Shown here one piece after another: positions 4,682 to 19,455 of a stretch of DNA of 32,000 bases. The notes under the pieces were generated by a model. It worked only from the letters and a program-made list of their open reading frames with translations. It searched no databases and was not told where the DNA came from. Source of the stretch: Vibrio vulnificus CMCP6 (GTDB taxonomy: Bacteria > Pseudomonadota > Gammaproteobacteria > Enterobacterales > Vibrionaceae); contig NC_004459.3 of NCBI RefSeq assembly GCF_000039765.1, positions 90,001-122,000 of the forward strand, read 5' to 3'. Positions within the stretch are counted from its first letter, which is position 1. Every line of letters begins with the position of its first letter. A program made the position numbers and the translations under genes.

Positions 4682-4978
4682 CTATTTACGGACGAAGTAA
4701 GCGAATGCGGAAGAGACAACCCCAAGTAACAACCAGATAAGATCACGGTTGTACTTGGTTTTTTCATTGGTTCCGCTTTGGCTTTGCTCTACTGGCCGCA
4801 GTCGGCTTTCCACATCGTCAACCGTGCGCTCTAAGCGCATGAATTGACTTTCAAGATTCGAATGCTTGGTTTGCAATTCAACCATTTGCCTCATTAACTG
4901 CGTTTGCTGTTTCATGTAGTCGCGCATTTCAATTCGAAAAGAGTGAAACTCGCCTTGAGAGACAGGATTACCGGACAT
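4682..4978 (-). CDS. Small coiled-coil protein with a C-terminal transmembrane helix (XhlA-like lysis-associated protein, tentative)
   Basis: ATG 4978 is preceded by GGAGG. The 98-aa product has a heptad-like central region (QTQLMRQMVELQTKHSNLESQFMRLERTVDDVESRL). It ends in the hydrophobic segment LIWLLLGVVSSAFAYFV. It lies immediately downstream of the holin. Confidence 0.45.
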   Translation of the reverse strand: MSGNPVSQGEFHSFRIEMRDYMKQQTQLMRQMVELQTKHSNLESQFMRLERTVDDVESRLRPVEQSQSGTNEKTKYNRDLIWLLLGVVSSAFAYFVRK

Positions 4979-5564
4979 TGCCACCTCCACGGAGTGCTGA
5001 AGCAATGCCACCAAGTACGCCCGCTGGCGCAATACCAGCGGAAACTTGTTTGTCTTGTGAGCGCTTATGAATGTTCAAACCAAGAACCGTTAGTGCGACA
5101 GAAAACAAAGCCGTCAGCTTTGCCGCTCCGGTAAAAGCTTGTTCGGTAAATTCAGGATGAAACAACATCAGCCCTGCAATACCAAAAAATAACGATGTCC
5201 AAGCTAAACAAACCGCATAACCAAACGTCGGACGCCAACGGCGAACATACGCATCATCGCTGTTCAGCTCAGCAACCATCAACTTATGCTGCTCAGTGAT
5301 CACCAGTTTGCGTTCTGCGCTTTCTAGTTCCGCTTGCTGATAGGAAAGCTCACGCAGCCGAACACGCTCTTCACTTTCCATCTGTTTGATTTTGACCAAA
5401 GCATCTGGATTACGAACCAGTTCTGCTTCGATTGCTTCCGCCGAGTTCTCCACCCCTAACGTTTCGGCAATCAGGGCGCCAACGGAAGCACCTGCAGGCC
5501 CACCGACCAAACTGCCGACAAGTGGTGCTGCGCCCCCAATCAGAGACTTCACTTTGTCCCACAT
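4968..5564 (-). CDS. Holin, 3-TM 'GTA-type' family (tentative)
   Basis: 198 aa. It has a Gly/Ala-rich N-terminus and a central coiled coil. This is followed by ...RRWRPTFGYAVCLAWTSLFFGIAGLMLF... and two further hydrophobic segments, which fits the GTA_holin_3TM pattern (WRP..G). A strong AAGGAG precedes the ATG with a 6-nt spacer. Confidence 0.6.
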   Translation of the reverse strand: MWDKVKSLIGGAAPLVGSLVGGPAGASVGALIAETLGVENSAEAIEAELVRNPDALVKIKQMESEERVRLRELSYQQAELESAERKLVITEQHKLMVAELNSDDAYVRRWRPTFGYAVCLAWTSLFFGIAGLMLFHPEFTEQAFTGAAKLTALFSVALTVLGLNIHKRSQDKQVSAGIAPAGVLGGIASALRGGGNVR

Positions 5565-6278: not shown

Positions 6279-8855
6279 TTAGCGGCCTGACTGTGAATAG
6301 AAGAGTACGCTGGTAAAGCGGTTACGAATTGGCTTCGGACAGTGAATCGCGTTGTACTCTTCACCGTAAGCTTCTTTACCACCTTTGAGCTGACCATTAG
6401 CATCACGCGCTTCTTGCATTTCACTGAGCGTGAATGGCTTAACGACCGTGTAAGTGAGCGCACCTTTCTGACCCATGATGATCCGCTCATCCCCCAAGTG
6501 CGTGGCTGGCGCATTGGTTGAAAACGAAGGCAGTGCTTTCACCATCTCTAAGTCACCTTGTGCGGTGGTATCAGAGCCGTTGCGCTTCATCGAGGCGACA
6601 AACTGCTCCGCATTGGTACAGGTGTCATTGAGGGTGTTCGACATCAGCAAGAAATCTGGCGTAACAAAGCGATCATCTTTCATGATGGCTTTACGGCGAC
6701 CAATGGCTTGAAGCAGCTTGTTGTAGTGCTTCTCTGGCGCCATACCATCTGGAATATCGCTATCTACTTTGACGATGTTGGTTGCAAAACTGTAGCCAAC
6801 GCTCGCTGCATTCGCGGTGACTGGTTTCAGATCGCCCGATTCATCAACCAGGACAAACTTACCTAGGTTGTAAGAAGTCACGATGTAGTATGTGCCTGGG
6901 GCTTGAGTGCCTGAGCCGTCATAAGGCTGAATGGTCGTGCCATCAATTTGTAGTGTGATTGGGTTTTCAGCGTTACCCACAGTGTTTCCTTGCAGATCAT
7001 ACTGCTGATGCGGCGCCACAATCGGGAACTGAGCGGTTTTAAACTCCGCTTTGTCTTGCAGTTGGTTGGCAATGTCTTCACCTTGGATAGGCGCCGCAAG
7101 GTATGAGTCCGCTACGCGCTGCATGGTGTTCACAATGCGGCGAGCGACCAGTTCTTTGATGATGCGGCTCGCTGTCGCGACGTTGCGCCCCCAAGCATCC
7201 CAGTTAATGGCAGACGACTTGGAAAAATGCATTAACTCGTTCGAGACTTCAAACGCCACTTTCATTGGCAAGACATACGCCAAATCCATGCGCTGCGAGT
7301 TCTTCACTTTCGGAATGGTACCGTGCTCAAACACAATGCCATCGCCCATGATCGCCGACACATCGCGGTTTTCATAAGGGATATTGGTTGTCGCTGATGC
7401 GCTGAAGTCGGTCAGCGTTTGTACCAGTTGCAACACATTAAGGTCAGAAAGCGCTTCGCGAATCACTTCACGCTGCACAGAAACAGGCAGTTCGCTGTCT
7501 GACACGATGTTGGCGCTGCCTTGGCCTGTTAACGCCAAGCGTTCAGCATGAATCTTGTGATGATGTAAGCGGTCGAACTCGGCCAGCACTTGGCGAGCAA
7601 ACACGGGCAGTTCTTTCTCTTCCGTTAAACGCAACTGACCAAGTGCATAGGTATTGGTGTTGCGAAGCGCCGAGTGAATTTGCGCTTGCAGCTGCAAACT
7701 TTCACGCTGCTGGTCGGGTGTTTGAGTGAGAGAGCCAGTGACACTGCCAAAGCCTAAGCCATTCAACTGAATGGAGACCATTTTCTCGTTGCCATGCTTA
7801 ATTTGGTTTTCTGCCAGTTTGGTGATCTGCTCATCCGACATATCAACGCTAATAAGCGCAGACGCTTCTTTCAGCTCTTTCTTCACTTCATCACTGAGCC
7901 CTTCCGCTTTGTCGATCGCTTCCGTGAAGATTTTCACTTTCGCAGTGAGCTTTTGCTGTTTCTCCGCCTGTTCTTGCGCGGTTTTGCTGGCTTGCTCACC
8001 AAGAATACGCAGCACGTCCGCTTCACTGAGCGAACCGCCCGTTAAATTGATCACCGGCACCGCAGGGTTGCCGGATTCTGAAAGCTGCATGGCCACGCCT
8101 TCAAACTGTTCACTCAATTTGGTGGCTTGGGTCTCATCACTGATGCCGCTTAGTGAATCAGTCAGCAGTTTGACCATGGCTGTGTGTTGTTTGGCAGAGA
8201 GTTTCATGCCTTTCAGTTTGCTTTCAAACTGGGCGATCAGTTGTTTCCACATGGTTTGACGTTCCTCAGAGAATTTTTGAGCAAGAGACTCGGAAAGATA
8301 AGTGGGGCATTCATGAAGGCAGGCTTCACTGAGTTCGATCTGGTCTAGGTTTTTGATACATGGACGCGTGACCAAACCTGCACCTAGCAGGGTTGGGCCA
8401 AACTCAGAATATTGGCCATTGGTTCCGGCCTCGTTGCTGACATAGTTGAGATGTATTTCGGCGGATAAGTACTTAAAGCCTTCTTTGGTGACTTTATTAA
8501 TGCCGAGTTCGAACCACTCCACCTCTGCACGTAAACGTCCACGGTCGGTAAACAGGCGTTTCACCACCGCCCCTGCGCCATCTTCTGGCTTATGCGCGAT
8601 GTCGATAAAGATCTCCTGACCATAAACCCCATCGTTAAAGTTTTTGATCATGGAATCGAACATGCTCTGGGTCAGTTCAAATTCGCCGTAACGTGGATCA
8701 TTAAATCTGCCGGTTCGGGTAATCGTGACAACACTGCGTTTTGCGGCTCCGGTATCCACCTTGACCGCATCAGATAAGAGATGAATCACCCCTTGTGTTG
8801 TGGTTGCACCCAGTACCAAAACGCCAGAGGCTTTTAACAATTGTCTTTGATTCAT
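6279..8855 (-). CDS. Fused prohead protease (Mu gpI-like), coiled-coil scaffold and HK97-fold major capsid protein
   Basis: 858 aa. The N-terminal ~180 aa resemble the Mu-like prophage protein I / protease family (TRTGRFNDPRYGEFELT...FIDIAHKPEDGA...LSAEI). Residues ~200-400 are low-complexity and coiled-coil (Q/E/K/L-rich). The C-terminal ~450 aa look like an HK97-family capsid protein (NIPYENRDVSAIMGDGIVFEHGTIPK...MDLAYVLPMKVAFEVSNELMHFS). Confidence 0.75.
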   Translation of the reverse strand: MNQRQLLKASGVLVLGATTTQGVIHLLSDAVKVDTGAAKRSVVTITRTGRFNDPRYGEFELTQSMFDSMIKNFNDGVYGQEIFIDIAHKPEDGAGAVVKRLFTDRGRLRAEVEWFELGINKVTKEGFKYLSAEIHLNYVSNEAGTNGQYSEFGPTLLGAGLVTRPCIKNLDQIELSEACLHECPTYLSESLAQKFSEERQTMWKQLIAQFESKLKGMKLSAKQHTAMVKLLTDSLSGISDETQATKLSEQFEGVAMQLSESGNPAVPVINLTGGSLSEADVLRILGEQASKTAQEQAEKQQKLTAKVKIFTEAIDKAEGLSDEVKKELKEASALISVDMSDEQITKLAENQIKHGNEKMVSIQLNGLGFGSVTGSLTQTPDQQRESLQLQAQIHSALRNTNTYALGQLRLTEEKELPVFARQVLAEFDRLHHHKIHAERLALTGQGSANIVSDSELPVSVQREVIREALSDLNVLQLVQTLTDFSASATTNIPYENRDVSAIMGDGIVFEHGTIPKVKNSQRMDLAYVLPMKVAFEVSNELMHFSKSSAINWDAWGRNVATASRIIKELVARRIVNTMQRVADSYLAAPIQGEDIANQLQDKAEFKTAQFPIVAPHQQYDLQGNTVGNAENPITLQIDGTTIQPYDGSGTQAPGTYYIVTSYNLGKFVLVDESGDLKPVTANAASVGYSFATNIVKVDSDIPDGMAPEKHYNKLLQAIGRRKAIMKDDRFVTPDFLLMSNTLNDTCTNAEQFVASMKRNGSDTTAQGDLEMVKALPSFSTNAPATHLGDERIIMGQKGALTYTVVKPFTLSEMQEARDANGQLKGGKEAYGEEYNAIHCPKPIRNRFTSVLFYSQSGR

Positions 8856-8872: not shown

Positions 8873-8899
8873 AAAAAAGCCCCTGAAAATGTCAGGGGC
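8873..8899 (-). terminator. Intrinsic terminator closing the accessory island, ~20 nt upstream of the capsid RBS
   Basis: The stem is gcccctga (8879-8886) paired with tcaggggc (8892-8899), with a 5-nt loop. On the minus strand a run of six U follows (plus-strand A-run at 8873-8878). Confidence 0.75.
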
Positions 8900-8964
8900 T
8901 CGGTCGCCAATTAAGGGCAGTTTGAGTGATGAAAGTAACCGTTGGGAGGGTTAGATAATAGCTA

Positions 8965-9402
8965 TCATGACCTTACAGCTAAATCATCGGCTCGGAAAAA
9001 AGGATATTTGAATGGAGATGGATGTTTTAAGCAAACTTCTAGAATCACATGCTCGGTCACCGCTTTGGAAACATCAATCCTTGTATGTAAAATCCCCGCA
9101 GATTCATCTCCTGGGAACTCAGGGTCTTTGCCATCCGAGTACATTTTATAACCAAAATGGTAATGATACTGACGCTTATTCTCTGCATCTTCTAAAAATG
9201 TATTTTGAAAAGCAGTTCGTTTATGTTCAGGCGTTTTCATTTTCCAGCTTGGTTTGTATTTGCCTCTAAGTTCATCAGGGGGAGTCAGCCCATTGAAATT
9301 AATCGGTTGAACAAAATGTTTGTAAACACTGTCAATCACATCACGTTCCAGCTTTTTCATTTCATCAAGAACGGTTCTCGTAAAGTAAGCTTTATGTTCC
9401 AT
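8965..9402 (-). CDS. Unrecognised 145-aa protein downstream of the Panacea-domain gene; candidate toxin or effector
   Basis: The ORF begins 5 nt after the upstream gene's stop, which suggests an operon and possible translational coupling. The region is AT-rich. It contains RQYHYH (residues 77-82), which fits the generic Rx4H pattern. I see a weak, unverified resemblance to YafO-type toxins. Confidence 0.55.
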   Translation of the reverse strand: MEHKAYFTRTVLDEMKKLERDVIDSVYKHFVQPINFNGLTPPDELRGKYKPSWKMKTPEHKRTAFQNTFLEDAENKRQYHYHFGYKMYSDGKDPEFPGDESAGILHTRIDVSKAVTEHVILEVCLKHPSPFKYPFFRADDLAVRS

Positions 9403-9407
9403 TTTTA

Positions 9408-9983
9408 CTATACGCTTTGTATCCAGTTATAGAAATCATCAGCATTTTGAATGGTCTGCGGAACTTCAATGACTTCAGATTCCATAGCTGCTTCCATTCT
9501 GTCCATGTGAATTGAAAGCAATCTGTCATGCTGCTCATTCAGCTCTTGAGCAAAGAAATCAATAAGCTCTTGATGAGTTATCGTTTGATAATCAACTTTC
9601 TTACTTTCTTTACTAACATGAGCTAACCAAGGAGCCTCTCTATGGCTTTTCTCTCTAAGTTGCCAAGCTCCCATGTTACCTAATGTCATTAAAACAAAGT
9701 CTATGGTTTGAACAGCCCTGTCTGAAAGTTCACAAATAGCATTACCAACCGATGCTGTAATTGTTCCTTTTTTGTACGTTTGATATTCTTCGTACAATGA
9801 ACGAACTACTGGGCCATGATCCCACGCCTTTAGATCTTCATCAAAAAGTGGCTCTTCGTATTGAGCAAGATGATACCCCTGGCAATAGTAAGCGAGCTTT
9901 TGTAGCTTTAAATTGCTTACTTGTATGCCATTTTCGCTTGCTCTTTGTAGCAATGCTTTTGCGAAGATATCAGCAGAGACCAT
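9408..9983 (-). CDS. Panacea (DUF4065, SocA/GepA-like) domain protein; putative antitoxin
   Basis: 191 aa. The N-terminus, IFAKALLQRASENGIQVSNLKLQKLAYYCQGYHLAQYEEPLFDEDLKAWDHGPVVRSLY, matches the DUF4065 signature as I remember it (T..KLqKLlYy.qg..l....plf.e.feAW.hGPV....Y). GGGAG precedes the ATG with a 7-nt spacer. Confidence 0.75.
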   Translation of the reverse strand: MVSADIFAKALLQRASENGIQVSNLKLQKLAYYCQGYHLAQYEEPLFDEDLKAWDHGPVVRSLYEEYQTYKKGTITASVGNAICELSDRAVQTIDFVLMTLGNMGAWQLREKSHREAPWLAHVSKESKKVDYQTITHQELIDFFAQELNEQHDRLLSIHMDRMEAAMESEVIEVPQTIQNADDFYNWIQSV

Positions 9984-10022
9984 TGGAAACTCCCATAAAA
10001 TTTGAGGCGGGATAGTACAAAA

Positions 10023-10047
10023 GATAGCAAATGTTTACAATGCTATC
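10023..10047. promoter_or_regulatory. Inverted repeat (candidate operator) upstream of the Panacea operon
   Basis: gatagca (10023-10029) and tgctatc (10041-10047) are perfect 7-bp arms with an 11-bp spacer. They lie in a ~25% GC segment 40-65 nt upstream of the gene start. Confidence 0.3.
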
Positions 10048-10116
10048 CTTATATATATTCACTTATTGCCATATAGATTACACTTTTACTTAACTTTTAC
10101 GTCAGCACCATGCTGC

Positions 10117-10149
10117 AAAAAACAAAAGGCCCCCGGAAACTCAGGAGCC
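10117..10149 (-). terminator. Intrinsic terminator after the RelE-like toxin gene
   Basis: The minus-strand RNA GGCUCCUG-AGUUUC-CGGGGGCC forms an 8-bp stem that includes two G.U pairs. It is followed by UUUUGUUUUUU. Confidence 0.65.
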
Positions 10150-10190
10150 TATCTGTAAGTTAAAAATCTTGTTTTGGTTCTAAGAGTAAG

Positions 10191-10520
10191 CTATCCGATA
10201 AGCTTTAAATCAGCCTTCCTGCTCTTTTTCATAGACTCGTAGTAATTCTCATGAGGCCCAACGTTTAAAAGATAGAGCTCCAGCTTATCTTCGACCCAAG
10301 AGTATCCAAGTAGCACCTCTTGTTTATCCATTTTGAACTTGTGTACCCATAAATGGGATAGATCCCCCTTTTTACGTGTACCAAGCTCTGGATTCTCTAT
10401 GATCTTATCAATCTCATCTTCCACCACTACACATTGAGCTTCAGATAACTTGCTCATTTGTTTAGAAAAACGATTTGTTTCGTAAACATCAATCTGCTTT
10501 TCGTTTTGTTCGTCGCTCAT
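10191..10520 (-). CDS. RelE/ParE-family type II toxin
   Basis: 109 aa. The pattern ...IDKIIENPELGTRKKGDLSHLWVHKFKMDKQEVLLGYSWVEDKLELYLLNVGPHENYY is typical of RelE/ParE-superfamily toxins. It overlaps the upstream antitoxin gene by 32 nt. Confidence 0.75.
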   Translation of the reverse strand: MSDEQNEKQIDVYETNRFSKQMSKLSEAQCVVVEDEIDKIIENPELGTRKKGDLSHLWVHKFKMDKQEVLLGYSWVEDKLELYLLNVGPHENYYESMKKSRKADLKLIG

Positions 10521-10725
10521 AGCGTTTTACCTTACCGAGTTTTACTTCCTCGGAAGCCAAAAGCGATTCTTGTACAAAGCTATAAGGTAAGTCTGGGTTA
10601 TCTGTCATTATTTTTCCGATTTTAGCCCAATACTCAATCTGCTTAGGCACAGAACGCATTTCTGCTTCCGCATGAACCTTGACGTCAGACACAAAATCAT
10701 CGTCTAGGCGAATACTTGTTGCCAT
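10489..10725 (-). CDS. ParD-like type II antitoxin
   Basis: 78 aa. MATSIRLDDDFVSDVKVHAEAEMRSVPKQIEYWAKIGKIMTDNPDLPY matches the ParD_like pattern (RS...QIE.WA.lG). A strong GAGGAG precedes the ATG with a 7-nt spacer. Confidence 0.7.
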   Translation of the reverse strand: MATSIRLDDDFVSDVKVHAEAEMRSVPKQIEYWAKIGKIMTDNPDLPYSFVQESLLASEEVKLGKVKRYERRTKRKAD

Positions 10726-11093
10726 AGCAATTCTCCTCTAGCTTTATCATTGCACTTAACGGGAAGCTTATTTGCTAAAATTAAGCGCACATCTATGACG
10801 CAAATTTGCTGCATCGCTTTATACAACCTAAAAACTTCATCAAGCTTAAATAATCGATTCCTCTTCAAAAGCAAATTGCTTTTAACCATGATCCGAATAA
10901 GACAAAGTAAATGACTGTATTTATTTAAAAAGTTTCTCTGTTTCTTTGTATTCTGATTAGACTCAATTGGCGTATCAACAACACAAGATATGCCAAGTAT
11001 CCGCTCAATGTTTTCTAGCTGCTGCTCAAAATCAATCCTTCTTTTGGCAAGCTCTTCAAAACCAAAGTCAATAATTCTCATCCTCGCAAACAT
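10704..11093 (-). CDS. Hypothetical AT-rich ORF (129 aa from ATG 11093; the track extends it to 11216)
   Basis: ATG 11093 is preceded by GGGAG with a 7-nt spacer. ATG 11216 has no Shine-Dalgarno sequence. The predicted product is helical and basic. No family recognised. The 3' end overlaps the ParD-like RBS and start. Confidence 0.4.
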   Translation of the reverse strand: MFARMRIIDFGFEELAKRRIDFEQQLENIERILGISCVVDTPIESNQNTKKQRNFLNKYSHLLCLIRIMVKSNLLLKRNRLFKLDEVFRLYKAMQQICVIDVRLILANKLPVKCNDKARGELLWQQVFA

Positions 11094-11253
11094 TAGCAAC
11101 TCCCAAGCGAACTTCGATGTTTCCGCACACCAATAATGCAACAATTTGTCGCACAAAGCAACATATGAAGTAATGAATAGAAAGATAGGGCTAACTGCCC
11201 TGTCACCAGCAAACATTCGGTGTTAGGAAGAAGACGAACTGCACATTATCCAA

Positions 11254-11321: not shown

Positions 11322-11861
11322 ATGGATAGGGTTGATTTCACACTAGAGCAAAAACAGCAAATGCTTGTTGGTATTGATAGGTTTTTCAAGCGATACGGTA
11401 GCTACCCAATTGATGACCAAACCTATTCACTTATCGCTATGTGTCTTTGGGATAGCAAGGGATTTCAAGTTCCACCGCTCTACGATGATGCAGACATAAC
11501 TCTAAATAACGACTTTGAAAGTAAATATCGCCTTATTAAAGCCGTAACTATATTGTGCTCGGGTGGGAAAAAACCTCTCGGATACGGGATTCTTTTAAAC
11601 TTTTACTTCAATCTATTTCAAACAGTCATTTCAAGACTACAGCTACTCCATGAAGAGTTACCTGTAGCTATCAAACACGTTATCTCACCACTTTTCGTCG
11701 AAGATAAAGTACTTCGAGATTACGTATATCAAGACTTCGATGGATTAGGAAATGGACTGACTAAAGTAGGAAAAATATACATTCATCCACTTTGGTCCAC
11801 TTATATGTTTCGTGAAGAAGTAGTTTTCGAAGATGAGTTGCTTCATTATCCCAAAGCCTGA
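11322..11861 (+). CDS. Hypothetical 179-aa protein, the only plus-strand gene inside the late-gene block
   Basis: Long ORF in AT-rich DNA whose stop lies inside an intrinsic terminator hairpin. The Shine-Dalgarno sequence is weak. No family recognised. Confidence 0.55.
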   Translation: MDRVDFTLEQKQQMLVGIDRFFKRYGSYPIDDQTYSLIAMCLWDSKGFQVPPLYDDADITLNNDFESKYRLIKAVTILCSGGKKPLGYGILLNFYFNLFQTVISRLQLLHEELPVAIKHVISPLFVEDKVLRDYVYQDFDGLGNGLTKVGKIYIHPLWSTYMFREEVVFEDELLHYPKA

Positions 11862-12150: not shown

Positions 12151-13239
12151 TCACAGGTTTGTAGTATCAATGCCTTTTCGTTTCAGCACTGGCTCTAGGT
12201 GCTTCCAAGGGGTCGCAATCATCCCTTGGGTTAAGTGGCCTTGTTGTAAAGCGGATACTTTCTTGTTGTGCCCTAGCACCGCTTTCTGTGTCGCCTGGCT
12301 TTGGCTTTTCAGCCAATCAATTCGTGTTGTTGCATCTGCTTTGTCTTCTTCCGTCACTTCATCAACAAACACCACTTGCTCATAACTCAAGGTGTTAGGA
12401 TGCGCTGGCCACGGGCTTTTACCTCGTGGGTATACGCCACGGCCAAGGCCATAAAGATTTGCCATGGCGTGCATATCGCAGATATCCCTTTTGGGATGGT
12501 TCGGGCTTAGCTTGAACTTAGTCCCCACTACAAACTCATCTTCAAAAGCAGAGTTCTGAAACGCCATGCCGTAGGCTCGGTTAATCTCCGTTCTCATCAC
12601 TCGCTTGATTTGGTGATACGGTGCACCTTGATCTTCCATGAGCACATCACTGACCTTTTTATTGATTCCAGAGCTGCTGGCCATAGTCATTTGCTGAGCA
12701 ATATGGGACGGAACAGGCTGCATGCGGCGCTGATAATCCTGCGCGGCTTCGGATGCTGACTGGCCGAGGATAACGGCGCGTTCCACCGCGTTGGTTAGCT
12801 CTTGTTTTGCGTTGCGATGAACCCGCCAAAGGCGGTCACTCAGTTGTAACCCATCTTTCTGCTGCATGGTTCGGGTTGCCAGAACGGCAGCATCAATCGA
12901 CTCAGAAACTTTTGCGGCAGGAATACTGCTGCTGAACGTGTTCCCACCGTTTTTGGCCGCTTCGACAATATACCCTTCCACCATGCTCGATTGCTTTTGG
13001 TTTACTTGGTTGAGAATCTCCTCTATCTGCCTAGTGAGGGTATGTAACTGGGAAAGTCGAACTTGACCTAATTCATCGGCCGCGTGGCTAATCAGAAACT
13101 GGATTTCGACCAGTGCCGCCTGATAGAGATCGGTGAGATCCTGCATGGCTTGCGCATCCAGCTCATTGGTAGCACGCTGCGCTGCCTGCATCGCTCTGCG
13201 GATAGTCGCTTTAACTTGTGTGCGTTGATTGACTGCCAT
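12151..13239 (-). CDS. Head morphogenesis protein (Mu gpF / SPP1 gp7 family)
   Basis: 362 aa. Position is directly after the portal gene. The pattern ...IKRVMRTEINRAYGMAFQNS...KFKLSPNHPKRDICDMHA is typical of the Phage_Mu_F family. Confidence 0.75.
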   Translation of the reverse strand: MAVNQRTQVKATIRRAMQAAQRATNELDAQAMQDLTDLYQAALVEIQFLISHAADELGQVRLSQLHTLTRQIEEILNQVNQKQSSMVEGYIVEAAKNGGNTFSSSIPAAKVSESIDAAVLATRTMQQKDGLQLSDRLWRVHRNAKQELTNAVERAVILGQSASEAAQDYQRRMQPVPSHIAQQMTMASSSGINKKVSDVLMEDQGAPYHQIKRVMRTEINRAYGMAFQNSAFEDEFVVGTKFKLSPNHPKRDICDMHAMANLYGLGRGVYPRGKSPWPAHPNTLSYEQVVFVDEVTEEDKADATTRIDWLKSQSQATQKAVLGHNKKVSALQQGHLTQGMIATPWKHLEPVLKRKGIDTTNL

Positions 13240-13244
13240 GAGTA

Positions 13245-14624
13245 TTACCCGTTGCTGATGGACGTTGCACTTTCACCTTTCGGCTGATTGTTTGGAGTGA
13301 TGCTGACTTTATGCGCCGGCTTATTGTCCTCGTCATCGATGTCGTGGTTTTCTGGGTATGGGTCTTTACTGTTTGCCTCATCCTCACGCATGGCTTCTGC
13401 ACGTTGAACATCGACGCCTGCAGCTTCCCAAGCCAATTTCCTCGGCATACCCAGCGCCTGATATTTAAGGGCCAAGTCTGCGCGTTGGTTTTTGCTGTCT
13501 GTCATTCGTTCAGCAAACTGGATCTGGAACTGGTACGAATCCGGATTGATGCCAGCTAACAGCAGTTGCAGTTTAAAACCATCTTCATAGGCATACGCCA
13601 GCGCATCTTGCAGGGCATCAATCTCTTCGTAGTAATCGCGTTTTAAATCTTCAAGAACGTCTCGAGCGAGATCGTCTACATAGCCAAACAATCCCTTAGG
13701 TGCAGGCGCTCCGGAAAAGAAGGCATCGATGAGCAATGTGATATCGGCAATCTGCTCTAGGTTGGCATCACCACCGATAGCCGTGACGCTCAGTTTGTTA
13801 CCGTAAAAGTCAGTGGCAATTTCTCCCGATTGTCCTTCCACTCGTTCACGGTATTCATCTAAAGCTTTGCTATCAGCCCCATCGAGCGAATGCGCTAGCT
13901 TTTGCGGTGCTCGAGTTCGCCGACGAATCACCAGATCCTCTTCTGTCATGATCAGCTTTTGCCAGATGGGCCTCGCGGCATCGAGATATGGGCGCCCCAT
14001 ACAACCCATATCATCAAAGTTATCTGGGTCTAATCGGCTTACGGTGAGCTGCCAGAGCGGAAAAGTACACAGCTCTTCGTAGGTCAGTGGGTCTACCTGA
14101 CGAAATGCTTGTTTGACGTCTTTGAAACGTCCGGTTCGGTCCACGATGGGAATAATCGTTTCGGTCGGCATACGTACCGAGCTCGTCACCTGACGCTGCT
14201 CGTTGACCACCCACTGCAGCGGTAAGTTGCCCTCTTTGGCCAAGCCTGCGGCATCACTCATCAGCTTCATGCGGTTGTTGAGCTGCAAGCGAAGCGTAAA
14301 CTGTTGCCAAAGTTTGCTGACACGGGTGCTTTCTTTGCCAATCCAATGCAGTTTCAAACCGCCTTTGGTGGCATCACGCGCAATGCGGCGATGAATCTTT
14401 TTCACCCGTGGATCAACCTTATCCATGTAACGCAGCATCACAATAGCGGCGCGTAGGTTCGGATCTATCTGCATTTGGTCGTAAAGGTATTGCACTGAAC
14501 GTTCAGGGTCTGCGATGTGGCCTTTCTCAGTCGTGACATGGCCATGCTGATTACCGGAGGTATTAGGCGCGGAAGGGAGAGGCTTGTTTCTCAATATGGC
14601 CCAAATTTGGGATAACTTGCTCAT
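13245..14624 (-). CDS. Portal protein
   Basis: 459 aa. It lies immediately downstream of the large terminase with an ATGA overlap. The C-terminus is acidic. The size and position are typical of a portal. The family was not identified by eye. Confidence 0.7.
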   Translation of the reverse strand: MSKLSQIWAILRNKPLPSAPNTSGNQHGHVTTEKGHIADPERSVQYLYDQMQIDPNLRAAIVMLRYMDKVDPRVKKIHRRIARDATKGGLKLHWIGKESTRVSKLWQQFTLRLQLNNRMKLMSDAAGLAKEGNLPLQWVVNEQRQVTSSVRMPTETIIPIVDRTGRFKDVKQAFRQVDPLTYEELCTFPLWQLTVSRLDPDNFDDMGCMGRPYLDAARPIWQKLIMTEEDLVIRRRTRAPQKLAHSLDGADSKALDEYRERVEGQSGEIATDFYGNKLSVTAIGGDANLEQIADITLLIDAFFSGAPAPKGLFGYVDDLARDVLEDLKRDYYEEIDALQDALAYAYEDGFKLQLLLAGINPDSYQFQIQFAERMTDSKNQRADLALKYQALGMPRKLAWEAAGVDVQRAEAMREDEANSKDPYPENHDIDDEDNKPAHKVSITPNNQPKGESATSISNG

Positions 14625-18169: not shown

Positions 18170-18412
18170 TTAGTCGAAGATAACTGATATCTCAGCTTCA
18201 TTGATAAACAGCCAGGTATGGCCATTGGCGGTGACATCAAGCCCCGCATAAGGATTGAACTGAATTCTCGCGCCTACTGCTACTTCCTTTACCTGATGGC
18301 CAACAGCGACTACCTCACCAGTGTTAGCTGGCTTATCTGGCGTCCACAACAAGCTTCTGGGGCGTTCATCTCGCTGAATTACTACCCAATCATGCAGTGG
18401 TCTTAATTTCAT
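18170..18412 (-). CDS. GroES/Cpn10-like co-chaperonin homologue (80 aa)
   Basis: MKLRPLHDWVVIQRDE...GEVVAVG...VGARIQFNPYAG...EAEISVIF aligns by eye with E. coli GroES (MNIRPLHDRVIVKRKE...GEVLAVG...VGDIVIFNDGYG...ESDILAIV). The mobile-loop region is shortened. Its start overlaps the integrase stop (ATGA). Confidence 0.7.
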   Translation of the reverse strand: MKLRPLHDWVVIQRDERPRSLLWTPDKPANTGEVVAVGHQVKEVAVGARIQFNPYAGLDVTANGHTWLFINEAEISVIFD

Positions 18413-19455
18413 AGGCGTTTCCCTTTTCTAAGCTCATTCAACAAGGCACTAACTGGCGTATCAATTTTCCCTAATGGGTTCCCTTTATCCAGTACGTTCG
18501 TCATCTTACGCATCGAGATATGCGTGTAAATCTCTGACGTTTTAGGGTCCGCATGCCCCATCAATGCTTGAATCTGCAGAGTGCTGGAATCCGACTCCGC
18601 TAACTCTGTACCAAACAAGTGACGTAGTGCATGAGCATGGGCTTGGTCTTCCGGAACTCCCGCGGCGATCGCATATTTCTTTATCATCCGGTCAACAGCT
18701 CTAGTTGATAAGCGCCGCAGTTCTCCACGGTGCTCCCATTCCGGAACGTGACGGTTACGAAGATTAACAAACAGTACCTGGTCACCATCATCAAGCAGAC
18801 GATCAACATGCTTAAGGTCGGGATGGCCAAGATAAGCCTGAACAAGCAGCATAGCTTCAAGGGGAACGGGTACCAATCTCTCACGCTCCCCTTTTTCCAT
18901 GGTGCGAATGGCCAGACGTTCAACCTCACCATACTGATACCAAATAAGCTGTGACTCATTCAAACCGCATAGGCCCGCTACACGAAAACCGCAGCCAATC
19001 AGCAAAGACAGCATCGCACTATCTCGAACACCAGAAAGCGATGTTAACTCAGGTTGGAACAACAACGCCTCTGCACTTTTGAGCCCCATAAATCGCGGTA
19101 ATCTGCGCCCAATTTTAGGGTAAACCAAATCCGATGCAGGGTTTTTAGCGACAAGGCGCCGCTTAGCAAGAAAAGAGTAAAAGCCTCGAATAGCCGCAAC
19201 GGCCACCTTTCGTGACGCAGCAGAATAGCCAGCTCGATGCAGCCAACCACCGGAAAACTGCTCCAAATCTTTCAGTTCAACCTTGTCAAATTGGCCATCA
19301 ACAAACTTCTTTAGCTGCTCAAGCAAGCCACGATATTTGCGCACCGTTTTAGCGCTGCAGTTCTCACTATCTCTCTTCCAGGTAAGAAACTGATCAATTG
19401 GATCAGTTGAAGCTTGGTTTGTTTTTATTTCTTGGTCGGGGGCAGAAAAATCCAT
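18409..19455 (-). CDS. int: Tyrosine recombinase / phage integrase
   Basis: 348 aa. An N-terminal SAM-like core-binding domain is present. The C-terminal catalytic motifs are ...GLRVAG..., HALRHLFGTELA and LMGHADPKTSEIYTHI (the R...HxxR...Y signature). Confidence 0.9.
   Translation of the reverse strand: MDFSAPDQEIKTNQASTDPIDQFLTWKRDSENCSAKTVRKYRGLLEQLKKFVDGQFDKVELKDLEQFSGGWLHRAGYSAASRKVAVAAIRGFYSFLAKRRLVAKNPASDLVYPKIGRRLPRFMGLKSAEALLFQPELTSLSGVRDSAMLSLLIGCGFRVAGLCGLNESQLIWYQYGEVERLAIRTMEKGERERLVPVPLEAMLLVQAYLGHPDLKHVDRLLDDGDQVLFVNLRNRHVPEWEHRGELRRLSTRAVDRMIKKYAIAAGVPEDQAHAHALRHLFGTELAESDSSTLQIQALMGHADPKTSEIYTHISMRKMTNVLDKGNPLGKIDTPVSALLNELRKGKRL

Follow-up and report, generated by a model that had tools for sequence, protein, structure and literature searches.

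A 32,000-nucleotide (nt) stretch of the Vibrio vulnificus CMCP6 genome (contig NC_004459.3, positions 90,001 to 122,000), here called the window, carries within a prophage-like element two adjacent genes, the first of which (panA) encodes a Panacea-domain protein of 191 amino acids (aa) and the second a protein of 145 aa. We favour, with fair though by no means full confidence, the reading that they form a PanAT cassette, and thus a toxin-antitoxin system of type II, in which a RelE-like toxin, most probably an RNase, is held by the C-terminal tail of PanA. The specificity of PanA would reside in this C-terminal extension and not in the Panacea domain, a point overlooked by an earlier interpretation of the same DNA (the original prediction), which had proposed a Panacea-type antitoxin next to an unplaced 145-aa partner. 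PanAT systems were defined by Kurata et al. (2022; PMC8832971); nine pairs were validated in that study, and the number of toxin clusters predicted was 88.

PanA is composed of a globular Panacea (DUF4065) core and the C-terminal extension. Residues 27-119 match the Pfam model PF13274 (SocA_Panacea) with E=7.6e-21 and 75.6 bits, far above the cutoff of 25.7, which confirms the clear Panacea-type N-terminal domain claimed for this protein. In the PHROGs collection it matches phrog_1281 (E=4.5e-42), and among the NCBIfam models the one for the SocA antitoxin, NF047745, fits it best (E=1.5e-22). The AlphaFold model of PanA has a predicted local distance difference test score (pLDDT) of 95.9; the modelled core is helical with a small beta hairpin and ends near residue 135, which is about where the tail-less homologues of 143-150 aa stop, and all of the approximately 50 full-length homologues (183-194 aa) possess the extension. 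A comparison of the model with folds in the PDB gave a single notable match, 7yk3_B, a chain of the Mycobacterium tuberculosis DarTG complex (probability 0.96, E=0.09, template modelling (TM) score 0.40).

The pairing of PanA with the 145-aa protein is conserved across genomes: of the 21 loci retrieved at first, 19 have a full-length PanA directly before the homologue of the 145-aa protein. The paired PanA proteins are 36-49% identical over all 191 residues and the paired toxin homologues 38-52% identical, and in at least ten genera the two genes overlap or stand a few nt apart. The hosts include Shewanella, Aeromonas, Vibrio, Methylophaga, Pseudocolwellia, Algicola, Alteromonas and Pseudidiomarina as well as metagenomes, and the neighbouring genes differ from host to host: a resolvase/integrase island surrounds the pair in Shewanella, uvrD adjoins it on the chromosome of Aeromonas, and in Vibrio it stands at the end of a prophage, by an integrase. 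The PanA form of the pair was also found on two IMG/VR viral contigs. On one metagenome contig (locus L012, 1824-3370) the pair lies directly upstream of a cyclic oligonucleotide-based antiphage signalling system (CBASS) operon comprising a CD-NTase and a Cap15-like effector, that is, in a defence-island context.

In the PanA model, the extension forms a long helix (residues 137-168), an extended segment (169-180, EVIEVPQTIQN) and an amphipathic helix (181-190, ADDFYNWIQS). The tail motif is P-x6-[DE][DE]F-x-x-W[ILV], which reads P-x6-DDFxxWI in the PanA subclade of the window. Among PanA homologues, the extension is confined to the subclade paired with the 145-aa toxin family; the next-closest PanA relatives (143-150 aa) are devoid of it, and downstream of the tail-less PanA proteins of loci L039 and L041 an unrelated protein of 135-143 aa is encoded. 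This alternative partner (L039 2501-3342, L041 2501-3363) is characterized by the motifs PPxFSL...YCLS...RHGxG...MVGYR...FTLYDH and belongs to no Pfam family; the pair at L039 is flanked by a Type ISP restriction enzyme and GAPS4 defence genes. PADLOC models gave no significant match for PanA, the 145-aa protein or the alternative partners.

Divergent members of the 145-aa family that have no PanA neighbour are preceded by other proteins which share the tail sequence at their end. A tail profile built from the PanA extensions alone and searched against 1,879 six-frame open reading frames (ORFs) detected three classes of such non-Panacea proteins, namely proteins of 112-125 aa, a protein of 202 aa and, marginally, a protein of 57 aa (Table 1), and the best unrelated ORF scored E=0.29. 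The PanA of the window and the 125-aa protein of locus L008 also match each other in a pairwise blastp comparison (E=1e-5). Where the tail protein belongs to the class of 112-125 aa, the locus has a three-gene form, a TIGR04255-family gene preceding the tail gene at all four such loci; two of its products were scanned and matched TIGR04255 with E=7.7e-32 and 8.3e-17. No mention of TIGR04255 was found in the papers searched. Because the tail is shared by unrelated upstream partners of the toxin homologues and tail-less PanA proteins are paired elsewhere, the simplest explanation is that the tail is an element which recognises the 145-aa toxin family and was transferred from one scaffold to another. 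On this view the tail would be the toxin binder, and the Panacea core a scaffold or sensor. A metagenome protein of 132 aa (P0038), in which the PanA C-terminal extension is joined to the first 47 residues of a toxin homologue, is probably a frameshift or assembly artefact.

The 145-aa protein belongs to a rare family: 5.8 billion proteins contain 11 clusters of it (90% identity), and a profile search of 1.84 billion proteins recovered 34 representatives. The named hosts are chiefly marine Gammaproteobacteria together with Gilliamella, and most of the remaining members come from metagenome assemblies. Even at E<=1, none of Pfam, NCBIfam and PADLOC gives a match to the protein, its only, weak match being the uncharacterised phrog_5954 (7.7e-4). 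In an alignment of 35 members, which are 23-55% identical to the protein of the window, residues K50, H80, Y81, H82, S101, H106 and H127 are invariant, and the conserved motifs are L-x-G-K-x-K-P-S-W (45-53), H-Y-H-x-G (80-84), Y88, S101, H106 and H127-P-x-P-F. The set of invariant Lys, His, Ser and Tyr residues suits an endoribonuclease, as far as residue conservation can indicate. One member, WP_318453121.1, is labelled as RelE family toxin by NCBI, and no Pfam or NCBIfam model detects this protein. The statement that the 145-aa partner fits no toxin family thus holds for Pfam, NCBIfam and PADLOC, yet not for its predicted fold, which is RelE/ParE-like, nor for the NCBI label. The only PDB sequence match of the family profile (positions 40-81) was to ribosomal protein uL13 (28ye_W, E=0.003), in which LRGKHKPxYTP...LFHYHTGHP parallels LxGKYKPSW...LxHYHFGY of the family; since a single uL13 entry was matched and the per-domain E is 0.6, this match is probably due to chance.

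The AlphaFold model of the 145-aa protein, calculated from the family alignment, has a pLDDT of 81 and a predicted TM score of 0.77. Its elements are beta 2-8, alpha 9-15, alpha 20-35, alpha 64-75, beta 78-83, beta 103-111 and beta 115-124, an order which corresponds to that of RelE/ParE proteins plus an inserted helix (64-75) and two long loops. The Foldseek comparison recommended by the original prediction, made against the PDB, led to a RelE/ParE-like placement, albeit a statistically weak one (E of about 0.06). The top matches were 6n90, annotated YoeB/ParE (probability 0.93), and 2khe, RelE (0.97), followed by YoeB (7v6w and 7v5y), archaeal RelE (1wmi) and RelE1 (9g12). The alignments to RelE, YoeB and ParE structures extend over about 125-130 columns with target-normalised TM scores of 0.52-0.66, and the GNAT matches in the same list are short pieces with TM scores of about 0.2. 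From these models the RelE/ParE fold is the placement with the best support, short of being proven. The invariant residues map to the loop before strand 2, to strands 2 and 3 and to a position just after strand 4. The catalytic residues of RelE, YoeB and YafQ are located in the loop before strand 2, in strands 2 and 3 and close to the C-terminal end, and because the invariant residues of the 145-aa family would occupy these positions, we favour an RNase over a ParE-type gyrase poison.

According to the mechanism which we propose, the 145-aa toxin would be a divergent member of the RelE/ParE superfamily and most probably a translation-blocking endoribonuclease, with a candidate active site formed by K50 (loop past helix 2), H80 and H82 (strand 2), S101 and H106 (strand 3) and H127 (C-terminal segment). 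PanA would neutralise it by direct binding, not through the Panacea core but through the C-terminal extension, whose long helix, extended Pro-containing segment and short amphipathic helix with D-D-F-x-x-W-I would constitute the binding element. The Panacea core may act as a stabilising scaffold or as a sensor of the trigger. If PanA were lost or displaced, for example when a phage infects the cell or when the element disappears, the toxin would be released and growth would cease. This mode of action would correspond to what Ernits et al. (2023; PMC10440598) described as linear neutralisation in other multidomain PanA proteins.

A number of observations weigh against this reading. The Foldseek E-values are between 0.06 and 2 (best 0.056, none below 0.001), the query-normalised TM score is about 0.4, and the two most conserved loops are those with the lowest model confidence (pLDDT 55-69). 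No profile link to RelE, ParE or YafO models was obtained for the protein of the window and its relatives or with PDB profiles: with E limits of 1 to 10, the RelE/ParE-superfamily models of Pfam and NCBIfam matched neither the window protein nor any of 13 relatives, and the PDB profile searches yielded nothing related, only the uL13 match and noise. The contact between tail and toxin is suggested by the co-occurrence of the two sequences; the tail was modelled confidently in PanA alone (pLDDT 84-93), and judging from that model it may pack on the Panacea core and serve another role. Toxicity, RNase chemistry, the tail-toxin contact, the trigger and a role in defence are what we infer, and 8 of 25 putative PanT proteins that were tested were non-toxic in Escherichia coli (Kurata et al. 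2022).

With regard to the nature of the toxin, two other assignments and a resemblance to YafO have to be considered. The same module might contain a ParE-like toxin that poisons DNA gyrase instead of cutting RNA; this is in line with the common fold of RelE and ParE and with the YoeB/ParE annotation of 6n90, but the four invariant His residues and the invariant Lys, Ser and Tyr of the 145-aa family make it unlikely. Nucleases of the RelE, YoeB and YafQ type characteristically show such a pattern, which ParE proteins are not known to have. Moreover, the 145-aa protein matches no Pfam ParE or ParE-like model, whereas the ParE-like toxin encoded nearby in the window scores E=1.7e-31; on the other side, ParE domains are among the PanT domains detected by CDD (Kurata et al. 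2022). An assignment to the HEPN-type RNases is hardly credible. The sequence KRQYHYHFGY, emphasised in the original prediction, is indeed present and R77-x4-H82 formally fits Rx4-6H, but R77 occurs in only 1 of 35 members, N being usual at this position, so that the Rx4H motif is not a feature of the family; in addition, the model, an alpha/beta fold, places the site in a beta strand, HEPN proteins being all-helical, and the fold matches include no HEPN structure. The HEPN assignment was therefore rejected. As to the segment described as faintly reminiscent of YafO, E. coli YafO from K-12 was used and a YafO alignment of 14 sequences was built. A relationship to YafO may or may not exist: hhalign against the 145-aa family gives a probability of 4.6% and a score of 21.0, which 4 of 150 block-shuffled controls equal or exceed, and at a relaxed threshold the alignment is collinear through HxH, SD-x-H and the last strand. 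PF13957 (YafO_toxin), which E. coli YafO itself matches with 1e-39, detects neither the 145-aa protein of the window nor any of 10 relatives.

Two further explanations concern the relation between the partners. In a SocAB-like type VI system, PanA would be a proteolytic adaptor that hands its partner to ClpXP and the tail would be a docking element. The SocA model is the best NCBIfam match of PanA, and the conserved extreme C-terminal peptide could serve as a protease or adaptor signal; the score of 80 bits, however, lies far from the equivalog cutoff of 190, the 145-aa partner resembles no known family, SocB included, and the presence of the tail on the 57-aa protein and on other non-Panacea proteins suits a simple binding peptide. 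As the PanAT pairs tested by Kurata et al. (2022) also formed stable type II complexes, we regard a type VI system as quite improbable. Alternatively, the 145-aa protein could be a harmless non-toxin, perhaps with a regulatory function, perhaps a factor interacting with phages or a nuclease fold that has degenerated, which travels with tail-bearing proteins; the rarity of the family and the share of non-toxic PanT candidates mentioned above would fit. The strict conservation of catalytic-type residues, a gene order and spacing corresponding to antitoxin followed by toxin, the exchange of upstream partners with retention of the binding tail, and the occurrence of the pair in defence or integrase islands and prophages speak against a non-toxin, and we consider it an unlikely explanation.

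The two ORFs were found where the original prediction had placed them, 5 nt separating the stop codon of panA from the start of the downstream 145-aa gene (Table 1). A ribosome-binding site and a terminator of their own, which had likewise been predicted, were both located, namely the Shine-Dalgarno-like GGGAG in front of panA and a hairpin followed by a T-run, which lies 64 nt past the stop codon of the 145-aa gene. Because this hairpin and the terminator at 10127-10150 delimit the pair on either side, it is considered a separate transcription unit. A putative promoter is represented by the sigma-70-like hexamers TTGTAA (10035-10040) and TACTAT (10012-10017), separated by a spacer of 17 nt and matching in 8 of 12 positions; they were picked by eye and score below the cut-off of the scan. 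The inverted repeat reported upstream of panA exists and is slightly longer than claimed, but it is statistically unremarkable, as a perfect arm of equal length arises in 18 of 100 shuffles, and it is not conserved, no comparable operator being found upstream of homologous panA genes. Its role as a conserved operator was rejected on these grounds.

The surroundings of the pair are those of a Vibrio vulnificus prophage-like element, and its interpretation as a moron, that is, an accessory gene pair of this element, is supported. It is situated in an accessory island of about 3 kb between head-morphogenesis and capsid genes, which also harbours a ParDE-like cassette and two ORFs without family match. 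Annotated copies of the pair, exact or 99% identical, exist in V. vulnificus, V. cholerae, V. navarrensis and V. mimicus, the CMCP6 accessions being AAO08647.1 and AAO08648.1, and all exact copies examined have an identical genomic context. DNA and protein searches of GenBank phage records gave no match to the pair, and the search for the insertion slot in related phages yielded one distant capsid homologue, in a Microcystis phage. The 858-aa product of the capsid gene resembles a head-maturation protease joined to a capsid protein; its single relative in 50,697 GenBank phage records is from the Microcystis phage vB_MaeS-yong1 (40% identity). The ParDE-like cassette, a second and canonical toxin-antitoxin cassette, is located directly upstream (10191-10725, (-) strand) and comprises overlapping genes for a ParD-like protein of 78 aa (PF11903, E=1.4e-16) and a ParE-like protein of 109 aa (PF15781), followed by its own terminator. 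The two ORFs without family match form a divergent pair (10704-11216, (-) strand, 170 aa, for which gene callers give 129 aa, and 11322-11861, (+) strand, 179 aa) and were searched against Pfam, PHROGs, NCBIfam and PADLOC. A protein of 198 aa encoded at 4968-5564 ((-) strand) has a precomputed Pfam match to GTA_holin_3TM, plus matches to phrog_1544 and a holin phrog, and only a short distance separates the integrase gene from the packaging genes. Instead of a complete prophage, the element may represent a reduced or gene transfer agent-like one.

Table 1 Features of the panA locus in the window and of loci with related tail sequences
Feature	Sequence	Position	Strand	Properties
panA	window	9408..9983	(-)	191 aa, Panacea core and C-terminal extension; stop codon 9408-9410
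Panacea (DUF4065) globular core	window	9579..9983	(-)	residues 1-135
C-terminal extension	window	9411..9578	(-)	residues 136-191, about 55 aa
C terminus of PanA	window			EVIEVPQTIQNADDFYNWIQSV
Toxin-like gene	window	8965..9402	(-)	145 aa, predicted RelE/ParE-superfamily fold
Shine-Dalgarno-like GGGAG	window	9990..9994	(-)	6 nt 5' of panA ATG, read from sequence
Intrinsic-terminator-like hairpin	window	8877..8901	(-)	10-pair stem with 6 GC pairs, then T-run; TTTTCGTTTT
Terminator	window	10127-10150	(-)	closes upstream ParDE-like operon
Candidate promoter/operator region	window	10012..10050	(-)	putative; inverted repeat overlapping weak sigma-70-like hexamers
Inverted repeat	window	10020-10050		AAGGATAGCA-N11-TGCTATCTTT; 10-nt arms 10020-10029 / 10041-10050, one mismatch
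Protease-capsid fusion	window	6279-8855	(-)	858 aa; phrog_328 and phrog_22848
Head-morphogenesis protein	window	12151-13239		flanking gene
Portal-like protein	window	13245-14624		flanking gene
Integrase	window	18409-19455		flanking gene
Upstream protein, 117 aa	L027			tail profile E=8e-11; on IMG/VR contig 2189573022_000012; C terminus VFVDIPDDIDSADDFYNWIQSL
Upstream proteins, 112-116 aa	L036/L037			tail profile E=8e-10; C terminus of L037 (112 aa) GYVEIPLSISTADEFYEWLHREQ
Upstream protein, 125 aa	L008			tail profile E=5e-9; C terminus DVIKIPNDIQSENEFFEWLKTV
Upstream protein, 118 aa	L038			tail profile E=3e-7; C terminus GAIGIPSSISTADDFYQWILQNSR
Upstream protein, 202 aa	L023			tail profile E=9e-6; C terminus HPDWVKDGDDFVNWINQLQV
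Upstream protein, 57 aa	L022			marginal; tail profile E=0.038 (0.0065 with shorter tail profile); C terminus KPIPQDLKSSNDILEWLLAQ
TIGR04255-family gene (~255 aa)	L008	4836-5609		directly before tail gene
TIGR04255-family gene (~255 aa)	L027	638-1405		directly before tail gene
TIGR04255-family gene (~255 aa)	L037	2-685		directly before tail gene
TIGR04255-family gene (~255 aa)	L038	35-802		directly before tail gene

A wider, decidedly tentative idea is that the tail is a plug-in toxin-binding adaptor which places one RelE-fold toxin under interchangeable upstream modules. Candidate modules are a fused Panacea domain, a TIGR04255-family protein together with a small tail protein, the 202-aa protein and possibly, in view of its marginal match, a bare 57-aa tail protein. 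If Panacea and TIGR04255 were alternative sensors of the trigger, nature would have performed a swap experiment that could reveal what Panacea senses, and the uncharacterised TIGR04255 family would be assigned its first role. With the cassette, the toxins controlled by PanA would gain a His-rich, uncharacterised branch of the RelE/ParE fold, and it would offer a natural and testable example of an antitoxin binding element that is separable from the Panacea domain, one tail being found on several unrelated scaffolds. It thereby bears on the question raised by Ernits et al. (2023) as to the role of Panacea in proteins where another part neutralises the toxin. In matters of principle the discovery carries lesser weight, because PanAT hyperpromiscuity and linear neutralisation have already been published.

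In comparison with the known PanAT systems, the cassette of V. vulnificus likewise has a Panacea/DUF4065 gene immediately upstream of the gene for a small partner, and the pair is likewise mobile and distributed across genera; a further common trait is that the closest tail-less PanA relatives are paired with another toxin-like family. It differs in that none of the validated PanT proteins belongs to the 145-aa family, for which Pfam and NCBIfam offer no model. The clusters of Kurata et al. (2022) include MqsR-like toxins, and HHpred on one member of cluster T28 gave probabilities of 89% for YoeB/ParE and 78% for RelE. T28 and the 145-aa family have the same gene order, PanA followed by toxin, and T28 is RelE/ParE-like, as is the predicted fold of the 145-aa family. 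The hosts differ, being Sodalis, Pantoea, Psychrobacter, Pelistega, Neisseria gonorrhoeae, Taylorella and Rodentibacter for T28, and marine Gammaproteobacteria, Gilliamella and metagenomes for the 145-aa family. The accessible parts of the supplementary tables of Kurata et al. (2022) and NetFlax contain no host species or accession of the 145-aa family, and no mention of V. vulnificus together with DUF4065 was found in the papers searched. Since Kurata et al. (2022) already list PanT proteins with ParE domains and the YoeB/ParE/RelE-like T28, the most fitting class for the 145-aa proteins is that of a new family within a known PanT kind, not of a new kind of system; the suggestion of a new PanA-associated toxin family would thus hold for the family, which is uncharacterised and probably new, but not for the kind.

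Compared with RelE, YoeB, YafQ and HigB, the 145-aa protein has the same predicted topology, beta1-alpha1-alpha2-beta2-beta3-beta4, and its best structural matches are RelE, YoeB and ParE. It is longer by about 50-60 residues, with the inserted helix and the two long conserved loops, shows no detectable similarity to these toxins at the level of sequence profiles, and has the different signatures GK(Y)KPSW, HYHxG and HPxPF; PanA, for its part, is not of the RelB, YefM, DinJ or HigA type. YafO is of similar length (132 versus 145 aa) and has an alignable HxH on a strand, S/T-D-x-x-H about 23 residues further on and a hydrophobic strand followed by P/H, but the partner of the 145-aa protein is not YafN-like. 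The closest parallel on the side of the antitoxin is provided by PanA proteins that act by linear neutralisation, in which Doc is neutralised by helices that follow Panacea at the C terminus, and also by Phd-C fused to SUMO in the absence of a Panacea domain (Ernits et al. 2023); the same study describes linear neutralisation for Phd-C, PAD1 and ZBD on multidomain PanA proteins. Like the PanA protein of Corynebacterium doosanense with Phd-C, the PanA of the window has an extra C-terminal helical element that is seemingly specific for a toxin family, whereas the element itself is distinct from Phd-C, PAD1 and ZBD and is present also on proteins without a Panacea domain.

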